This document shows, one piece after another, positions 3,073 through 12,420 of a stretch of 64,000 nucleotides of DNA. Location of the stretch: contig CAWAOD010000009.1 in NCBI GenBank assembly GCA_963783575.1, forward strand, positions 288,001 through 352,000, read 5' to 3'. Each line of letters opens with the position of its first letter. The first letter of the stretch is position 1. The translations under genes and the position numbers were made by a program. The stretch is from an uncultured Spirochaetota bacterium (GTDB lineage Bacteria; Spirochaetota; Brevinematia; Brevinematales; JAOACQ01). Below the pieces are notes generated by a model. That model saw nothing but the letters and a program-made list of their open reading frames with translations, was not told where the DNA came from and made no database searches.

Positions 3073-3374
3073 CCAGTTAACCCAGGGAACAGGATGTTCC
3101 ATGATAGCCACTCATTATTAAAGAGATTGCCGAGCGTTAGCTCAGCAGCGACACGACGTCGCAGGGAACAGAGCCTGTCCTGAACAATAGCGAAAGGGAT
3201 GTTCCATAAGAACTGCACAATTAGAAATTAATAATGCCGAACGCCAGTTTGGCAACAACACGATGCCACAGGGAACAGGATGTTCCATGACAGCCACTCA
3301 TTATTAAAGAGATTGCCGAGCGTTAGCTCAGCAGCGACACGACGTCGAAGGGAACAGAGCCTGCCCTGAGCCTG
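3073..3374 (+). repeat. Tandem array of three-hairpin repeat family A (units 1-3 and left half of unit 4)
   Basis: Recurrent GGAACA-GGA-TGTTCC, GCCGA(A/G)C-N4-G(T/C)T(C/T)(G/A)GC and GCGACA-CGA-(T/C)GTCGC hairpins. 3083-3183 is nearly identical to 3269-3369. Confidence 0.9.
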
Positions 3375-5065
3375 CAGACTGTGTGAAAACACAGTAAATA
3401 TGCTATAATTATTAGAACAAAAATAATCGGAGTAAAAGATGAAGCATATTGAGGGAGAATCAAGGGATCAGATAGTTCTGTTCAATGAAACACTGGAAGA
3501 TCTGTTAGGAGAAGAAGATCCGGTAAGGTTTATAGATATTTTTGTTGATAAGCTAAATATGAAAGGAGTTGGTTTTAAAGTAAAAGAAGCATCAACCGGC
3601 AGAAGTTCATATAAATCCGAAATACTTTTAAAAATCTATATTTACGGATATTTGAATAAAATCAGGACAAGCAGGAAATTAGAGAGAGAGTGCCGAAGAA
3701 ACACAGAGTTGATGTGGCTGACTGGACGACTAGCGCCGGATTTCAAGACGATTGCCGACTTCAGGAAAGATAATAAGAAGGGAATACAGTCGATATTCAG
3801 AGAATTTTTGAAGATATGTCATAAAGCCGGGCTTTTATCATTTGACGTTGTTGGAATTGATGGAACCAAGATCAGTGCGCAAAACCACAATAACAATGTT
3901 TATCATAGGAAAAACATAGAAGAAATCATACATAGAATAGATCAAAAGATCGAAGAATATTTGAATGAGATGGATAAGAACGATAAGGAAGAAAAGAATG
4001 AATTTGAATTTCTTTCCGGAAAGATAGCGGAACGTTTAAAGAAAATGAAAACAAAAAAGGATAAAGTTGAGGCTATTAAAAAGATTTTTGAGGGAAATCC
4101 TGAAATGGAGAAATATTATTCAAATGACCCGGAAAGCCGGTTTATGAATGATAAAGGGAAATCCGACATTGCATATAATCTGCAGATGGCAGTAGATGAT
4201 GCGAATAAACTGATTGTGGCGATTGATGTGACGAATGAAAACAATGATATCAAACAGATGGCAGGAATGTGTGACCGAGTAGAAGAAATAAAGGACGAGC
4301 TTAAGGTAGAGACTGAAACGGTCAAAGTATCGGATGCCGGTTATTACAGCGAACCGCAGATACTGGAATGTATAGATAAGGGACATAACGTATATATGCC
4401 GAATCCGGATGACGGACATAAGGCAAGGATTCGAGGCAAAGAAGATAATAAAGGAGTACCTGCTGAAGAATACCAGGTTGATAAATTCAAATATGATCCG
4501 GGACAAGATGTTTATTATTGTCCGGAGGGAAACCCATTAGTGAGAAATGGGAAAAAAGTAGAGAAGGTCAATGGAGGAAAAGAGATAGTCAGGTACAAGT
4601 GCGGCTTATGCAGCCAATGTGAAGTAAGAAATAAGTGTACTGAAAGCGTGGAAGGACGAAGTATCAAAGTACCAGTTAGAAAAGAAGAAATTGAGAACTT
4701 CAAGAGGAAAATTCGTTCTGAAGCCGGGAAAAAGATCATAGAGAAAAGGAAAGAGATATGTGAACATCCATTTGGATCGATAAAAAGGAATATGGGTTAC
4801 AGTTATTTTTTAATGAAGGGAAAGGATGGCGTTCTGACGGAATCCAGTTTGGCAGGATTCATTCATAATTTAATAAAAGTATTGAATATATTGGGAATAA
4901 AGAGACTTATGACTCTGGTTTGATGCTAATAAACCATCGTTTATCGTATTCGGATAGATTTTTTAAACTAAGATTTTTTTAGCTTGAAAAATATATCAAA
5001 AAATGGAGTTTTTGTATAATTAATCGATTTTACTATAAAATTTTACTGAGTTTTCACACAGTCTG
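3375..5065 (+). mobile_element. IS1182-family insertion sequence
   Basis: 24-bp terminal IRs with one mismatch (CAGACTGTGTGAAAAC[A/T]CAGTAAA) flank a single transposase; no clear target duplication. Confidence 0.92.
3439..4923 (+). CDS. IS1182-family DDE transposase
   Basis: SRKLERECRRN..MWL...PDFKTIADFR (DUF772), IDGTK, DAGY, Cys cluster and RKEICEHPFGSIK motifs. Confidence 0.95.
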   Translation: MKHIEGESRDQIVLFNETLEDLLGEEDPVRFIDIFVDKLNMKGVGFKVKEASTGRSSYKSEILLKIYIYGYLNKIRTSRKLERECRRNTELMWLTGRLAPDFKTIADFRKDNKKGIQSIFREFLKICHKAGLLSFDVVGIDGTKISAQNHNNNVYHRKNIEEIIHRIDQKIEEYLNEMDKNDKEEKNEFEFLSGKIAERLKKMKTKKDKVEAIKKIFEGNPEMEKYYSNDPESRFMNDKGKSDIAYNLQMAVDDANKLIVAIDVTNENNDIKQMAGMCDRVEEIKDELKVETETVKVSDAGYYSEPQILECIDKGHNVYMPNPDDGHKARIRGKEDNKGVPAEEYQVDKFKYDPGQDVYYCPEGNPLVRNGKKVEKVNGGKEIVRYKCGLCSQCEVRNKCTESVEGRSIKVPVRKEEIENFKRKIRSEAGKKIIEKRKEICEHPFGSIKRNMGYSYFLMKGKDGVLTESSLAGFIHNLIKVLNILGIKRLMTLV

Positions 5066-5150
5066 TTAACGAAGGGATGTTCCATGATAGCCACTCTTAA
5101 TCGAAGAGATTGCCGAACGCTAGTTCGGCAGCGACATGATGTCGCAGGGA
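5066..5150 (+). repeat. Right half of repeat family A unit 4, split by the IS
   Basis: GATGTTCCATGA, 23-nt linker, TGCCGAAC-GCTA-GTTCGGCA, GCGACA-TGA-TGTCGC, AGGGA. Confidence 0.9.
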
Positions 5151-5199
5151 GTTAATAACGAAAAATCAACAAAAATATCAGTCAAATGAAAAAGTAAAC

Positions 5200-6580: not shown

Positions 6581-7009
6581 TCATTCCACATCCTTTATAA
6601 ATGAAATGATTCTGTCCCTAATTTCATCCCTGACTTTTCTTGTCTTATCAAGTTTTTCCTGATAGCTTCCGGTAAAGGACGCCGGGTCTTCGAATTCCCA
6701 ATGGAGCCTTTTTGTGATCCCCGGAAATATAGGGCATCTTTCACCATTTGCGCCGTCACAAACCGTTATGACATAGCTGTATAAATTTCCATTTTTATAA
6801 AAGTCAAAAACGCTTTTGGTTTTATTTCCTGAAATATCTATTCCTTCATCCTTCATGGCATCTATAGCAAGCTGGTTAAGACTTCCCGGTTCAAGTCCGG
6901 CGCTTTCAGCGTAATATCTATCACCGCCCAGACGGTTCAAAAGAGCTTCGGCCATCTGGCTTCGCGCAGAATTATGGACACAGACGAAAAGGACTTTTAT
7001 TTTATCCAT
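6581..7009 (-). CDS. arsC: Thioredoxin-coupled arsenate reductase (LMW-PTP fold)
   Basis: [17 protein letters not shown]...CP.FPG and HWEFEDP motifs; ars context. Confidence 0.9.
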
Positions 7010-7445
7010 ATTGACCCCCTGTTTTAAAGTAATAATTAAAACTAATAATATTAATTATAATCAAAAATTGTTAGAAATTCATTAATTTTCCCATAATTTT
7101 TGTAATTTGATAAATATCTTACAAGGATACGGATATACCTGTACGAAAGTATTCGATTTGAGTGCCGAGAATCTTTTTTAGCCTAAGGAACTGTTTTTGT
7201 CCGGTACAATGGCAGGTATAATTTTTATATCGTGGGTCTTTTGGAATGTATTAAACAGAACAGAGGAAAAATTGTAATTGATGGCTATCAAAATTGCAAC
7301 CAATTCTCGAATAAATATGATTTTGAACCGGTTGATGAATCTGATCCCGTCAAATTAAAAGAAAAATTCTTTAAAGGTAATGATGTTTATAAAATCAACG
7401 GCGCTCATTGTATTATTACCTCAAGGAAAAAATAATTATTGCCCA

Positions 7446-8122
7446 TCAATTTTTCTGTTTATTTGCAGTCTTCAGTTTCTCAATCAAATCCAGCGCGCGC
7501 TGTCTTGCTTCCATTTCCTTATCGCTTAAAGGTCCAATCCATGGTTCTTTAATATTCCAGGTTAAATTGGTATCAATTAAGGGTTCTTCAAAAGCTCCGG
7601 GATCAAATAATTGATAATCCATAAAACTTACTGGTGTTTCCTGATATGAAGACCATATCGCCTTTTTAATCAATAGTCCGTCTTTAAACTGAAGATTGAT
7701 CAGCTTGACCTGCCGCCTGAATCTTTCAATATATTCGACAGGCAGGTTGTATAAATATGCATGCAGAGCATTCGTTCCTTTAATTTTTTTCCTATCGTCA
7801 ATGCCGTGCTCAAACAAAGCGATCAATGCCTCACCCGTTAAATGCCCTGCAGATTCAGGCCCTGCAAGTATTAAATACCTGATATTCGGATTGCCGATTA
7901 TATTGCATATCATTTTTTCAAAACCGATATTCGGGGTTTGAACTGTACCTGATAAAGCGGCCCCTGATTCAATACCAAGCTTTACAATATTATGAATATC
8001 ATCCGGGATTTTGTCTTCATCAGTGTTTAAAATCACAGCTAAAGCAACCGGCGAATAATCATTGCCGCGCATGTATCTTCCGGCCTCCGAGGGGTATGAG
8101 GGATTAGGTTCAACTTTAACAT
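7446..8122 (-). CDS. Soluble MtrA-like (tetrahydromethanopterin S-methyltransferase subunit A-like) putative corrinoid protein; probable true start 8122 is one base out of frame
   Basis: TPNIGFEKMICNIIGNPNIRYLILAGPESAGHLTGEALIAL and IERFRRQV match the MtrA core with its conserved His. No C-terminal TM anchor. Adding one A near 8115 gives MLKVEPNPSYPSEAGRYMRGNDYSP. Confidence 0.85.
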
Positions 8123-8163: not shown

Positions 8164-9111
8164 TTACAGAATCGCATTGAATAAATACCCCGTCAACATA
8201 ATTCCAACCGCTACCACGCTGAAATAGATTATCAGCAGGCGAGGCTTTAAGACCTTCCTCAAAATAATCGCTTCCGGAAAAGACAATGCCGTAACGGCCA
8301 TCATAAAGGATAAAGCAGTCCCTATTGCCATGCCTTTATCCATTAAAACTTTTACAATCGGGATGATTCCGGCGGCATTTGAATATAGCGGTATGCCTAT
8401 TATAACCGCGATTGGCACAGCAAAAAAGTTTGAAGGCCCCGCGGCTTTTGATAGAAAATCCGCCGGCGCGTATCCATGCATAAAGCCGCCGATGGCTATT
8501 CCCACCAGAACATATGGCCAGACTTTCCCGATTATTTCGGAAACATAATCCCTTCCATAAATAAACCTGTCTTTCCAGTTCATTTTTTCAATTTTAGCAT
8601 ACCCGTATTTGATTTTATAAACATAATCCTCAACATGCTTTTCCAGTTTCATTCTTCCAATCGCCAATCCGCTGACAATAGCGATCACAATGCCGCTGGC
8701 AATATAAAGAACAGCGACTTTCCATCCGAAAAGGCCCCAGAGCATGATTAAGGCGACTTCATTGACCATCGGTGATGATACCAGAAATGAAAATGTCACA
8801 CCCAGAGGGATTCCTGCTTCAATGAAGCCGATGAAGAGGGGCACAGCCGAGCATGAACAGAAAGGTGTTACTATCCCCAGCAGGGCCGCAAGAATGTTGC
8901 CTACAAACTCCGGTACTTTTTCCAGTATTTTCTTTGTTCTTTCAGGTGGAAAAAAACTTCTGATAATAGCAATCGCAAAAATAATAACCGCAAGTAGAAA
9001 AAATATCTTTACAGTGTCGTAAATGAAGAAATTCAGCGCAGCCCCGATATGTGAATCCGGCTGAAGGCCAATTATTTTATAAACCAGCCGGTTAACAATA
9101 GTTTTCCACAT
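8164..9111 (-). CDS. arsP: ArsP/DUF318-family permease
   Basis: TPFCSCSAVP, FLVSSP.VN, G.PLYSNAAG and MMAVTALS.PE motifs. Confidence 0.85.
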   Translation of the reverse strand: MWKTIVNRLVYKIIGLQPDSHIGAALNFFIYDTVKIFFLLAVIIFAIAIIRSFFPPERTKKILEKVPEFVGNILAALLGIVTPFCSCSAVPLFIGFIEAGIPLGVTFSFLVSSPMVNEVALIMLWGLFGWKVAVLYIASGIVIAIVSGLAIGRMKLEKHVEDYVYKIKYGYAKIEKMNWKDRFIYGRDYVSEIIGKVWPYVLVGIAIGGFMHGYAPADFLSKAAGPSNFFAVPIAVIIGIPLYSNAAGIIPIVKVLMDKGMAIGTALSFMMAVTALSFPEAIILRKVLKPRLLIIYFSVVAVGIMLTGYLFNAIL

Positions 9112-9114
9112 ATT

Positions 9115-9347
9115 TTAAACTTTTAAGATTCTGATGATCTGATCTTTATCCAGAACCCTCCCTGCGCTTTTAACTATTCCATCTATAGCAAGCGCGGGTG
9201 TTGCCATCACGCCGAATTCCATAATCTTCTCAATTTCAGTAATCTTCTCGATTTCCGCATTTATGCCTGTTGCCGCGATAGCTTCTTTTGCGTTTGCTTC
9301 AAGCTTTTTGCAGTTAGCGCATCCGGAGCCAGAATTTGAATTTTCAT
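9115..9347 (-). CDS. Small redox-active disulfide (thioredoxin-family) protein, about 77 aa; one base missing near 9331; not in the ORF track
   Basis: GAGG RBS, then MKIQI[L] and, after one added base, GSGCANCKKLEANAKEAIAATGINAEIEKITEIEKIMEFGVMATPALAIDGIVKSAGRVLDKDQIIRILKV*. Confidence 0.85.
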
Positions 9348-9358
9348 TATCAACCTCT

Positions 9359-10402
9359 CTAAATAAAACTTTTCTTTAATTTTAATGCGATGTTTACCAA
9401 TAAAACCATCACAGGCACTTCAATAAGCGGCCCGATAACCGCGGCAAAAGCCTGGTTTGAATCAATACCGAAGATGGCTACCGCCACAGCGATAGCAAGC
9501 TCAAAATCATTCGAAGCCGCCGAAAAGGAAACAGCCGCACATTGCTGATAATCGGCACCGGATTTTTTTGCAATAAAGAAAGTTGCGAACCACATTATAA
9601 AGAAATAAATTAAATACGGAACAGCAACCCTGATTACATCAAATGGAGTTTCTACTATAAATTTACCTTTCATTGAAAACATAACTATTATTGTAAATAA
9701 TAATGCGATCAGGGTTAGCGGGCTTATAAAAGGCGAGAAAACCTCATCAAACCATTCTTTACTTTTTATCTTTATCAATATAAACCGTGTAAATAGTCCC
9801 GCGATGAAAGGTATTCCAAGATAGATCATAACCGTTTTTGCGGATTCTAATATTGATATATTTACATTCAGCCCTTTTATCAGTCCTAATATGTTCAGGA
9901 AAACGGTAATAAATATAAAAATATAAAGTGCGTAAAACATAACCTGGAAAATAGCGTTAAAAGCGACAATACCGACACCAAGCTCCCTGTCGCCTTCAGA
10001 AAGGTCATTCCAGACGATAACCATCGCGATGCATCTCGCCAATCCTACAAGAATAACACCAATCATATATCCCGGATTATCCCTTAAAAATATTACAGCA
10101 AGAGCAAACATTATTAGAGGTCCTATAAGCCAATTCTGGATCAATGAAAGAAACATCAGTTTTTTATTCCTGAAAATTCTTCCCATTTCCTCATACTTCA
10201 CTTTTGCAAGTGGCGGATACATCATAATTATTAATCCTATTGCGATAGGAATGGAGGTCGTCCCGACCTGCAGCTTACCGATCCACACAGTTAAAGGTGG
10301 ATAAAAATAACCCAGAGCAATTCCAAAAGCCATAGCAATGAATATCCACAATGTGAGAAACCGGTCAATAAAACTGAGTTTTTTTGAAACTATAGTATCC
10401 AT
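9359..10402 (-). CDS. acr3: Acr3 arsenite efflux transporter; the RBS-linked ATG at 10428 is one base out of frame
   Basis: [44 protein letters not shown] and GPLIEVP motifs. Confidence 0.95.
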
Positions 10403-10548: not shown

Positions 10549-11328
10549 TTATCCCTTTAGTTTCTGGTATATACCTTTAAGCCTTGTTTGATAGATGCTT
10601 TTAATAGTTTCTTCATCTTCCTTTATCGGTTTACCCGGTATCAGGTCGATTGTTTCATCAAAAGACAACCCCGAGTCCAGATAAGTTTTCAGCGCTCCGC
10701 AGATCATTTTTTTAAAAGCAGCTTTAAAATCTTCCGCTGATAAACCCATGCCCAGGCTTATTTTTTTAATTTCTTCCCATTGAAACCAGAAATAAGTCGG
10801 CCCCATCGCAGTTAGAACAGCGTAAGCCTCAAGATTTTCTTCGGGGACAACCGGCGACTCGCCTAAAATCTCCAGGATCGCATATAGCATATTTCTATCA
10901 ACTACTGATAAGGCATTTGAATAAGATACCGGGTTGAATCCCGAATTTATTACAGAAGGACCGTTCGGAATAACTCGCGCAATCCTGTTGAAACCTCCCA
11001 GAAGTTCTGATAAATTTTTTATGGTAAATTTCGGTGCCAATGAAATGACAATCGAATCTTTTTTTAGCGAGGCTCCAATTTCAGGAAGCTCCTGACTGAT
11101 AACGGGCGGGTGAAGCGAAATAAAAACCAGGTCTTTAGCTGCCGGAGTTTTATTATCATTCTGATAGGTTTTGACATCCGGAAATTTTGTTTTGATTTTT
11201 TCCAAAACTTCCGGATCATTATCACTGACCGATATTTCACTGAATGTAATTCCTTTCTTCTTAAAAGCCTCCAAAAAAATACGCGTAATTCTGCCGCCCC
11301 CAATAAAACCAATAGTTCTGTCAATCAT
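10549..11328 (-). CDS. Pyrroline-5-carboxylate-reductase-like NAD(P)-binding oxidoreductase
   Basis: IGFIGGGRIT Rossmann motif, R.IPN and AMGPTY motifs; first gene of the ars operon. Confidence 0.7.
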   Translation of the reverse strand: MIDRTIGFIGGGRITRIFLEAFKKKGITFSEISVSDNDPEVLEKIKTKFPDVKTYQNDNKTPAAKDLVFISLHPPVISQELPEIGASLKKDSIVISLAPKFTIKNLSELLGGFNRIARVIPNGPSVINSGFNPVSYSNALSVVDRNMLYAILEILGESPVVPEENLEAYAVLTAMGPTYFWFQWEEIKKISLGMGLSAEDFKAAFKKMICGALKTYLDSGLSFDETIDLIPGKPIKEDEETIKSIYQTRLKGIYQKLKG

Positions 11329-11341
11329 ATGATTCCTCCAT

Positions 11342-11398
11342 ATATATGATTATATACATATATGCACATATAATAATGTAACATTAATAAAATGTCAA
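11342..11398 (-). promoter_or_regulatory. ars operon promoter with putative ArsR operator
   Basis: Minus-strand TTGACA (11398-11393)-17 bp-TATTAT (11375-11370), followed by inverted repeat ATATATG-N8-CATATAT (11342-11363). Confidence 0.6.
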
Positions 11399-11583
11399 GA
11401 AAAAATAATTTTATTCTAATTTGGAACAAAGAACAAACTGCAATTTATGTTTACACCTGGATTTTATAATGAGCGAAAATCAGGTTGACTTATTTAATAT
11501 TTATGATTAGAATTTGTATATTAGAAAAGACCGGTGGCGGTTTTCCGGCAGCGGTCATTATGATTGAATATAGGAGGCGATTA

Positions 11584-12075
11584 ATGGAAGCAATTTATCA
11601 ATTTGTAATGAATGATATAGATGGAAAAAGTGTGCAGCTATCTCAATACCGGAACAGAGTGGTTCTTATTGTCAATGTTGCCAGTAAATGCGGTTTTACA
11701 CCGCAATATAAGGGCCTGGAAGAGCTTTACCTCAAGTATAAAGATAAAGGCTTTTATATCCTTGGATTTCCGGCTAATAACTTTATGGGCCAGGAGCCGG
11801 GAAGCAATGAAGAGATTAAAAACTTTTGTTCGCTGACTTACGGTGTTACATTCCCTATGTTTTCCAAGATTGATGTAAAAGGTATAAACATAGCTCCTCT
11901 TTACTCTTATTTAACCGATAAAAAGCTGAATCCGAAGTTTGGCGGTGATATAAGCTGGAACTTTAATAAATTCCTTATTGATAAAAAAGGAAATATCATC
12001 AACCGGTTCGATTCAGCTGTAAAGCCTGATGATCCGAAGCTTGTAAATGCAATCGAAGAAGCTTTAAAAGAATAA
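11584..12075 (+). CDS. Glutathione peroxidase family protein (Cys type)
   Basis: VNVASKCGFTPQY, GFPANNF..QEPG and WNFNKFL motifs; AGGAGG RBS before ATG 11584. Confidence 0.93.
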   Translation: MEAIYQFVMNDIDGKSVQLSQYRNRVVLIVNVASKCGFTPQYKGLEELYLKYKDKGFYILGFPANNFMGQEPGSNEEIKNFCSLTYGVTFPMFSKIDVKGINIAPLYSYLTDKKLNPKFGGDISWNFNKFLIDKKGNIINRFDSAVKPDDPKLVNAIEEALKE

Positions 12076-12084
12076 TGTCGGTTT

Positions 12085-12420
12085 TTATTTTCCGGCGGCA
12101 CAACTCACGGTAGCGGCAAGTTCAATATCTTTTCCGTATTGATCAAAAGAGGGCAGTTGTACTAGGAGGCTTTTAAGGAAAGGGAATCTTATCAGTGCGC
12201 CGGGATCTATCTTATGGCAGACAAACTGGCCGAGTTTTTCCGAATCAATGAGGCCTGCTTCTTTTAGTTTCATAAGATGCCTGGATGCGTTGGACTGGTT
12301 CATCCCAAGGACTTTTTCAATCTCACAGACGCATAGCTTTCTTGTGTTTAAAAGATTAAGGATTCTGATTCTGTTTTCATCCGCCAGGGCTTTTAAGATC
12401 TTTATTAATTCTTTTGACAT
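12085..12420 (-). CDS. arsR: ArsR/SmtB family repressor with CxC As(III) site
   Basis: KALADENRIRIL, LCVCEI and SRHL..LK.AGLI motifs. Confidence 0.88.
   Translation of the reverse strand: MSKELIKILKALADENRIRILNLLNTRKLCVCEIEKVLGMNQSNASRHLMKLKEAGLIDSEKLGQFVCHKIDPGALIRFPFLKSLLVQLPSFDQYGKDIELAATVSCAAGK

Follow-up and report, generated by a model that had tools for sequence, protein, structure and literature searches.

An MtrA-like gene among arsenic-resistance genes

Why does a bacterium carry a homologue of the methanogen methyltransferase subunit MtrA among its arsenic-resistance genes? The question is raised by a 64,000-nucleotide stretch of DNA (hereafter the window) from an uncultured Spirochaetota bacterium (GCA_963783575.1, contig CAWAOD010000009.1, positions 288,001 to 352,000). 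A sequence-only reading of the window had described a co-oriented gene between arsP and arsC whose MtrA-like product carries a characteristic motif and has no transmembrane anchor, and had proposed that it could be part of a B12-dependent, ArsM-independent module for arsenic methylation or demethylation. The gene, its position and orientation, the motif and the missing anchor were all found as described. The features of the region are as follows.

6581..7009, minus strand: ArsC-type arsenate reductase of the LMWP fold (PF01451; TIGR02691 at 115.7 bits, below the cut-off of 174.3)
7187-7435, plus strand: short open frame, convergent, in the gap before arsC
7446..8072, minus strand: gene for the MtrA-like (cobamide-type) soluble protein, ORF as assembled, 208 aa
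8073..8122, minus strand: stretch encoding a family-type N terminus, its ATG at 8122 in a frame shifted by one base from that of the ORF
8164..9111, minus strand: ArsP-family permease (PF03773, 270 bits), 41 bp upstream of the start at 8122
9115..9347, minus strand: MTH895/ArsE-family CxxC thioredoxin (TIGR00412, 90.5 bits; cut-off, 62)
9359..10402, minus strand: Acr3 arsenite efflux pump (TIGR00832, 432.7 bits; cut-off, 282.8)
10549..11328, minus strand: P5CR-like oxidoreductase, from profile matches, first gene of the run
11343..11398, minus strand: sigma-70-type promoter match (11/12) overlapping a 14-2-14 imperfect inverted repeat
11485-12075, plus strand: divergent glutathione-peroxidase gene, between the operon and arsR
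12085..12420, minus strand: ArsR/SmtB repressor with a CxC motif, beyond the divergent glutathione-peroxidase gene

Read along the minus strand, the order is P5CR-like gene, acr3, thioredoxin gene, arsP, MtrA-like gene, a gap and arsC; the thioredoxin that had been called adjacent to the MtrA-like gene is separated from it by arsP. The intergenic gaps from the P5CR-like gene to the MtrA-like gene are 146, 11, 3 and 41 bp, and arsC starts 436 bp downstream of the MtrA-like gene. Because this last gap and the short convergent frame intervene, we are unsure whether arsC is cotranscribed with the MtrA-like gene. The convergent frame, which had no Pfam match and no longer homologue, is possibly a gene remnant.

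The site ahead of the P5CR-like gene is the best sigma-70 match of the region, in a scan in which promoter-like sites as a whole were not above chance (27, versus 21.8 ± 5.2 expected). Together with the short gaps, this match is suggestive of a cotranscribed, ArsR-controlled operon, and positions 11343 to 11398 are likely to hold its promoter and an ArsR-type operator, the latter role being assigned from the usual architecture of ArsR operators. A shared operator motif was considered and dropped, since the first pattern was not above chance in the window and the second occurred in 1 of 160 loci.

A paralogous run lies on contig C5 (G000:C5:86800-89600), with arsR, a P5CR-like gene, an intact thioredoxin gene and a truncated arsP, and without acr3 or an MtrA-like gene; its promoter region resembles that of the window operon.

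The product belongs to the MtrA family but is no Mtr subunit

The ORF as assembled scored 110.2 bits against the MtrA profile PF04208 (gathering cut-off, 25), in agreement with the family assignment made from the letters alone. The only NCBIfam models to match were MtrA types, each below its own cut-off: TIGR01111, for the MtrA subunit of the MtrA-H complex (108.2 bits versus 249.15), NF010654, of MtxA type (91.8 versus 279), and NF002126 (PRK00964.1-4), against which the N-terminally short ORF reached 152.9 versus a cut-off of 161 and the full-length relative L045 reached 185.2. Among the NCBIfam models, the HgcA profile NF040863 did not match the ORF, and neither Pfam nor NCBIfam gave a match to the SAM-methyltransferase or dioxygenase domains of ArsM or ArsI, the hits being to MtrA-type families only. 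The product lacks a transmembrane segment, its Kyte-Doolittle means over 19 residues peaking at 0.89 overall and at 0.27 in the C-terminal part.

Structure modeling (mean pLDDT, 84.9, falling to about 50 at residues 171 to 180 of a C-terminal extension) predicts the MtrA Rossmann-type fold. Foldseek placed the model with the MtrA fold at an E value of 4.5e-12, and superposition on PDB entry 5LAA gave a Z score of 20.8 and an rmsd of 1.3 Å across 141 residues, versus a Z score of 6.7 for the runner-up fold.

We then compared residues, numbered as in 5LAA, across 280 aligned and non-independent rows (160 loci and 120 proteins). The cobalt ligand His84 was present in 279 of the 280 rows, as expected of the soluble corrinoid-protein homologue that had been proposed. 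His84 and the pocket residues Thr53, Asn55, Gly57 and Asn64, which correspond to H77, T46, N48, G50 and N57 of the host protein, were each retained in 279 to 280 rows, counts that are partly built in because the locus search patterns contained the QTxNIG stretch. By homology to 5LAA, the protein very probably binds a cobamide in the same base-off/His-on manner. Other sites depart from the reference. Glu54, which hydrogen bonds to His84 in the structure of the MtrA homologue according to the text of PMC4915002 available to us, is Glu in 171 rows, Pro in 98 and Ala in 11, the host having Pro47; the Ile111 site is His in 262 of the 280 rows (His104 in the host), and the Ala63 site is Cys in 271. 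Of the GAIP(F/Y)xEN meander consensus, just the final Asn is invariant in the family.

The ORF is the only PF04208 match in the host genome. No MtrH, MtaB or ArsM above its cut-off was found in the host assembly, which is 89.85% complete. The host protein is a member of the MtrA fold and not an Mtr subunit.

The frame of the host copy

As assembled, the gene carries a one-base gap at its third codon. Upstream of Met-8072, the translation in frame with the ORF aligns with the N terminus of relatives, and an AGGA site precedes the out-of-frame ATG at 8122. The one-base offset before Met-8072 is probably an assembly error, the alternative being a real lesion. When 123 conserved genes of the host assembly were compared with the proteins of two genomes of the same family, the frames of 14 were likewise split, some at >80% identity. 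Because of this count, assembly error is the likelier cause of the frameshifts both here and in the thioredoxin gene, which has a one-base gap near its start and an intact paralogue on contig C5, and apparent pseudogenes of this assembly (G000) call for caution. Some decay of the host copy is conceivable as well, since a Cys conserved in 275 of the 280 aligned rows is Ser in the host and the terminal branch of the host copy is long in the tree.

Relatives recur in ars clusters of unrelated taxa

A protein search gave 2,640 matches, which may take in more distant MtrA types; the best 120 of them are 208 to 251 aa long and at least 56% identical. In GTDB, we found 334 matching stretches and examined the best 80 (77 genomes), and metagenomes gave at least 516, the best 80 of which were examined and were mostly short. 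The window protein and the 80 genome loci form one clade (FastTree support, 99) with a protein length of about 227 aa. Outside this clade lie Cys-rich, Fe-S, thymidylate-synthase and DUF4346 fusion types.

At least one of acr3, arsP, arsC, arsA and arsD lay within 8 kb of the MtrA-like gene in 29 of these best 80 of 334 loci (35 with a looser gene list), or in 29 of 64 after we dropped 16 loci that had <3 kb upstream and no ars gene. A random place in the host genome falls that near to its ars cluster 0.4% of the time. The ars-linked copies among the best 80 fall on several separate branches of the tree and in six named phyla of bacteria and archaea, the carriers being methanogens, Spirochaetota, Syntrophia-type deltaproteobacteria, Kiritimatiellota, Anaerolineae and Actinomycetota. 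In a sample from even draws and relatives, unranked as to similarity to the query, 5 of 16 stretches were in ars clusters. Thus, the gene is a recurring member of ars clusters in unrelated taxa, far above chance. A lack of enrichment near ars genes had been named as the first observation that would count against the sequence-only reading; the survey gave the opposite result because the relatives recur in these clusters.

Within the 29 ars loci (among the best 80 of 334), we counted arsR in 25, acr3 in 24, ArsE-type thioredoxin genes in 23, arsP in 22, arsG-like genes in 15, DGC in 15, arsC in 12, arsF in 9, hgcA in 7, arsM-like genes in 3 and P5CR-like genes in 2. The commonest upstream neighbor was acr3, directly upstream in 9 of the 29. 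The P5CR-like reductase, which had been included in the proposed module, was dropped as a partner in view of its presence at only 2 of the 29 loci and of the P5CR-thioredoxin-arsP run on contig C5 that has no MtrA-like gene.

The association is also clade structured, with 6 changes of context on the tree versus 21 when the states were shuffled, so that there are few independent cases. Of the 64 well-flanked loci (3 kb upstream or an ars gene), 35 are without ars genes in the flanking DNA available, and their neighbors vary; the stand-alone copies belong mostly to one Desulfobacterota clade, and a scan of 94 of their 117 flanking ORFs showed varied neighbors. Among the relatives' loci, we saw neither a methyltransferase nor an activator that recurs beside the MtrA-like gene. 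At two closely related stand-alone loci (L019 and L030) an ArsM-like gene scoring below the cut-off is directly upstream, and at L080 arsM is directly downstream. The gene is rare, occurring in 5 of 251 genomes of a Desulfobacterota draw and 12 of 201 of a Spirochaetota draw; among 60 relatives, one genome holds broken pieces of it, and on plasmids we found no family member covering 80% of the query. Replacement of Glu54 by Pro or Ala was rejected as a mark of ars-linked copies, since the raw difference (19/39 versus 7/41) gave no signal in independent pairs.

Some near relatives outside the clade (L173, P0133 and P0130) join the MtrA-like domain to a CFeSP-type [4Fe-4S] domain or a ferredoxin, and the L173 fusion gene (L173:1291-2127; also L199) sits behind arsR, arsP and a thioredoxin gene.

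Two further observations concern Desulfobacterota-type loci. At five of them (L009, L018, L045, L094 and L128) the gene follows TsoC, of a selenoprotein cluster, and TsoB/DsbD is also present in 4 of the 5. The L033 contig, labeled Shewanella, nests tightly among Desulfobacterota-type rows and is probably misbinned.

Acetyl-CoA synthase is the strongest genome correlate

The host genome encodes acetyl-CoA synthase (ACS), the CFeSP large subunit, RACo, CobS and HgcAB. In a draw of 200 Spirochaetota genomes, ACS was the strongest correlate of the MtrA-like gene, being present in 10 of 11 carriers versus 21 of 189 noncarriers, with P values that overstate the link because related genomes were treated as independent. 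ACS was also present in 8 of 10 further, hand-picked carriers.

We found hgcA in 31 of the 49 carrier genomes that were searched, which stand for 50 of the best 80 loci, versus 77 of 251 and 41 of 201 genomes in the phylum draws; it lay within 8 kb of the MtrA-like gene in 7 of the best 80 of 334 loci. The host hgcAB pair is complete and lies 190 kb away (G000:C9:485700-487100; L224:3686-5080), from which we predict that the host methylates mercury; by eye, the product of the gene upstream of it looks like a MarR-type regulator and not ArsR. An accessory role of the MtrA-like protein for this mercury methylase is nevertheless very improbable: the raw association in the Spirochaetota draw (7/11 versus 33/189; P = 0.0014) vanishes among ACS-positive genomes (7/10 carriers versus 13/21 noncarriers; P = 1), and 33 of the 40 hgcA genomes of that draw have no MtrA-like gene.

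Among genomes whose copy of the MtrA-like gene is not in an island, 22 of 28 had arsM, versus 2 of 18 with an island copy, a difference that comes down to 2 independent pairs and is not significant. The even Spirochaetota draw showed no link (2/11 carriers versus 15/189 noncarriers), and baselines were 71/251, 17/201 (Spirochaetota), 51/121 and 55/101, the large searches having scored fewer candidates per genome. The description of the system as ArsM independent therefore stands for the host and for most island genomes and does not stand for the non-island carriers, most of which have arsM, or for the three loci at which an ArsM-like gene adjoins.

A possible cobamide methyl shuttle and its alternatives

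It is probable that the protein takes part in arsenic handling in one way or another. As to the chemistry, we tentatively favor a cobamide methyl shuttle that would demethylate methylarsenite without oxygen and feed the Wood-Ljungdahl pathway, a reading that we put forward as possible and short of probable. The background, as given in the parts of the cited papers available to us, is that the ArsI C-As lyase requires oxygen and anaerobic demethylation has been tied to corrinoid methyltransferases (PMC10579292; bioRxiv 10.64898/2026.08.27.747368), that methylcobalamin methylates arsenic as a side reaction, and that anoxic arsenic methylation yields a more toxic product (PMC13262295, PMC6205960). 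In view of the side reaction, cells rich in methylcobamide would meet methylarsenite, and ArsI, with its need for oxygen, would be of no use to them.

The shuttle would work in five steps. The MtrA-like protein would bind a cobamide base-off/His-on, and arsenic would probably induce the operon through ArsR. From context and analogy, a host ferredoxin or the RACo activator may reduce the cobalt to Co(I), and the methyl group of a trivalent methylarsenical, perhaps thiol bound through the ArsE-type thioredoxin, could then pass to Co(I). On the same grounds, Acr3 would export the arsenite and ArsP any unconverted methylarsenite, and the methyl group would enter the folate/CFeSP pool. In its widest form, which we hold more tentatively still, the proposal is of a dedicated, ArsR-controlled methyl-transfer protein that, with a cobamide and without oxygen, would do the work of ArsI, removing the methyl group of methylarsenite and passing it to the Wood-Ljungdahl pathway, in bacteria and hydrogenotrophic methanogens, and that would be the first role of the MtrA fold outside methanogen-type C1 transfer.

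The shuttle is favored by the 5LAA-like fold and pocket residues, the ars context, the tie to ACS and the Fe-S and ferredoxin fusions of near relatives. Against it, the gene is not accompanied by a methyltransferase that would activate the substrate, and neither MtaB nor MtrH was found in the host; Pro or Ala replaces Glu54, the residue that tunes the cobalt His, in 109 of the 280 rows; a conserved Cys is Ser in the host; the gene is rare, and the host copy is frameshifted as assembled; 35 of the 64 well-flanked loci have no ars genes, and the ars context is clade structured.

Several of the same observations would suit protection of corrinoid enzymes, which we consider nearly as likely as the shuttle. 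Here, the protein would be a cobamide sink, decoy or repair protein shielding CFeSP, MetH and HgcA from arsenite or from thiol and metal stress, and the arsenic species would show no net change. The tie to ACS is tighter than that to any ars gene, the neighborhood offers no methyltransferase partner, the replacement of Glu54 in 109 of 280 rows fits binding better than a His-on/off cycle, and the stand-alone copies remain highly conserved, with short branches. Protection accounts less well for the repeated adjacency to organoarsenical genes (arsP at 22 and arsG-like genes at 15 of the 29 ars loci, among the best 80 of 334) and for the Fe-S fusions of near relatives, both of which suggest redox cycling, and the structure matches included no known B12 chaperone fold.

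The clade structure of the ars context, with its 6 changes, and the 35 well-flanked loci lacking ars genes could also mean that a Wood-Ljungdahl accessory with no arsenic role has been picked up by a mobile ArsR-type metal(loid) island and moves along with it, and the islands do bear unrelated cargo (e.g., DUF166, radical SAM and CoA-disulfide reductase genes). We consider such hitchhiking unlikely: gene order is reshuffled between phyla, yet the MtrA-like gene stays in the cluster; the ars context occurs in several separate branches and around an Fe-S-fused relative outside the clade; and ACS and CFeSP genes are never adjacent among the recurring neighbor families.

The reverse reaction, in which a methyl-cobamide would pass its methyl group to thiol-bound As(III) and ArsP would export the methylarsenite so that the protein stands in for ArsM, has in its favor the methylation of arsenic by methylcobalamin in methanogens, according to the available text of PMC13262295 and PMC6205960, arsP beside the gene in 22 of the 29 ars loci, and the near absence of arsM from island-type genomes (2 of 18) and its not being found in the host. 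That low rate is close to the Spirochaetota baseline of 17/201, however, arsM accompanies most non-island copies, ArsM-like genes adjoin in L019, L030 and L080, and the product would be the more toxic one under anoxia (PMC13262295 and PMC6205960, as far as available). We regard arsenite methylation as quite unlikely.

Finally, the position of arsC as the commonest recognized downstream neighbor (4 of the 29 ars loci, among the best 80 of 334), the ArsE-type thioredoxins at 23 of the 29 and the existence of ferredoxin and Fe-S fusions would fit a cobamide-dependent reductant, whose Co(I) would serve to reduce As(V) or organo-As(V) species or to return the ArsC/ArsE thiol chain to its reduced state. 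This seems improbable, as ArsC and thioredoxins already perform such chemistry and none of the solved proteins of the MtrA family is reported to be a reductase.

Comparison with known systems

The closest structural counterpart is the cytoplasmic MtrA homologue of Methanothermus fervidus, 5LAA (PMC4915002, available in part), which is likewise soluble and shares the fold, the His and the pocket residues. That protein is 97% identical to true MtrA, whereas the host protein is only about 37 to 44% identical to 5LAA, has Pro for Glu54, His for Ile111 and Cys for Ala63, is longer at the C terminus by a conserved stretch of about 55 residues, and is encoded in the ars clusters of nonmethanogens. 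The cobamide domain is also homologous to that of MtrA in the Na+-pumping MtrA-H complex (TIGR01111; 8Q3V, 9QTQ), but the host protein has no membrane anchor, a genome without MtrH and ars neighbors, and is not an energy-conserving subunit. Soluble MtrA-like proteins outside the Mtr complex are covered by NF002126, MtxA-type NF010654 and the Asgard MtrA-like and MtrAH proteins, the last from the accessible part of PMC11291895; the NF002126 label bears the Mtr name without a function of its own, and the host gene, unlike the MtxA type, has no MtrH partner.

Cobamide methyl carriage to or from arsenic under anoxia has a possible parallel in methanogens, in DMAs(III) demethylation by MtaB/MtaC and side methylation by MtaA, as described in the text at hand of PMC10579292, bioRxiv 10.64898/2026.08.27.747368, PMC13262295 and PMC6205960. 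Those proteins are catabolic enzymes of another B12 fold that act on arsenic incidentally, whereas the host gene is in an ars cluster and has no MtaB-type partner. HgcAB, too, involves a stand-alone corrinoid protein that acts on a metal(loid), and its genes often lie close to ars genes and ArsR (bioRxiv 10.1101/2022.10.17.512643, in the portion available), but it has a CFeSP-type fold, a membrane domain and a ferredoxin partner and is not homologous to the host protein. ArsI and ArsM, also encoded in ars operons, respectively cleave and form the C-As bond; their folds are unrelated to the MtrA-like protein, and ArsI needs oxygen and ArsM uses SAM directly, whereas the MtrA-like protein would use a cobamide.

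Wagner et al. (2016; PMC4915002) mention MtrA homologues with His84 in some bacteria, with no function given in the part of the paper available. The passages on Asgard MtrA-like proteins (PMC11291895) and on MtxAH (PMC9982363) available to us do not mention arsenic. In the main text, as far as accessible, of bioRxiv 2022.07.06.499078, PMC10349881 and bioRxiv 2026.08.27.747368, neither mtrA nor tetrahydromethanopterin occurs; the latter term is likewise absent from the accessible text of bioRxiv 2022.10.17.512643, as mtrA is from that of PMC10579292, and in the corresponding part of PMC7997004 the term refers to the Mtr complex. A literature search that covered mostly titles and the beginnings of abstracts, with few subscription papers and no supplements, gave no link between an MtrA homologue and an ars operon. 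This MtrA-fold gene of ars clusters is real, recurrent and apparently undescribed.

Methylarsenite demethylation by anaerobes is poorly resolved, and the methanogen route that has been studied ends at MMAs(III), according to the available parts of PMC10579292 and bioRxiv 10.64898/2026.08.27.747368. A small soluble protein from the ars clusters of Wood-Ljungdahl anaerobes offers a single purifiable candidate for the anoxic step, which is relevant to the speciation of arsenic in paddy soils, sediments and groundwater. If the protection reading is the true one, the gene is still a new ars-cluster member that ties arsenic stress to B12 chemistry. Nonmethanogen members of the family are annotated as "tetrahydromethanopterin S-methyltransferase subunit A," a label that can pass wrongly for a marker of methanogenesis.

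Other fusions and repeats

A sister group (L172:1501-3183, L174, P0272, P0273 and about 50 proteins) joins the MtrA-like domain to a Cys-rich helical C-terminal domain that has no Pfam match; these fusion proteins often have a TusA-like N terminus, and a stand-alone paralogue of the Cys-rich domain often adjoins their genes. Many distant MtrA-like domains (P0154, P0167, P0170 and P0321 to P0330) are fused to thymidylate synthase. Two fusions were rejected as pointers to an arsenic partner, both being apparent frameshift joins: P0320 (methyltransferase plus MtrA) is the sole member of its cluster and contains a methyltransferase other than ArsM, and P0147 (ArsC plus MtrA) has a garbled junction.

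Elsewhere in the window, several near-identical, palindrome-rich repeats of about 100 bp were seen by eye between co-oriented genes at 3085-3370 and 5065-5160, and a DDE transposase gene (3439-4923; DUF772 and DDE_Tnp_1_6) lies among them. The repeats could be REP-like elements or integron attC-like sites targeted by the insertion sequence.
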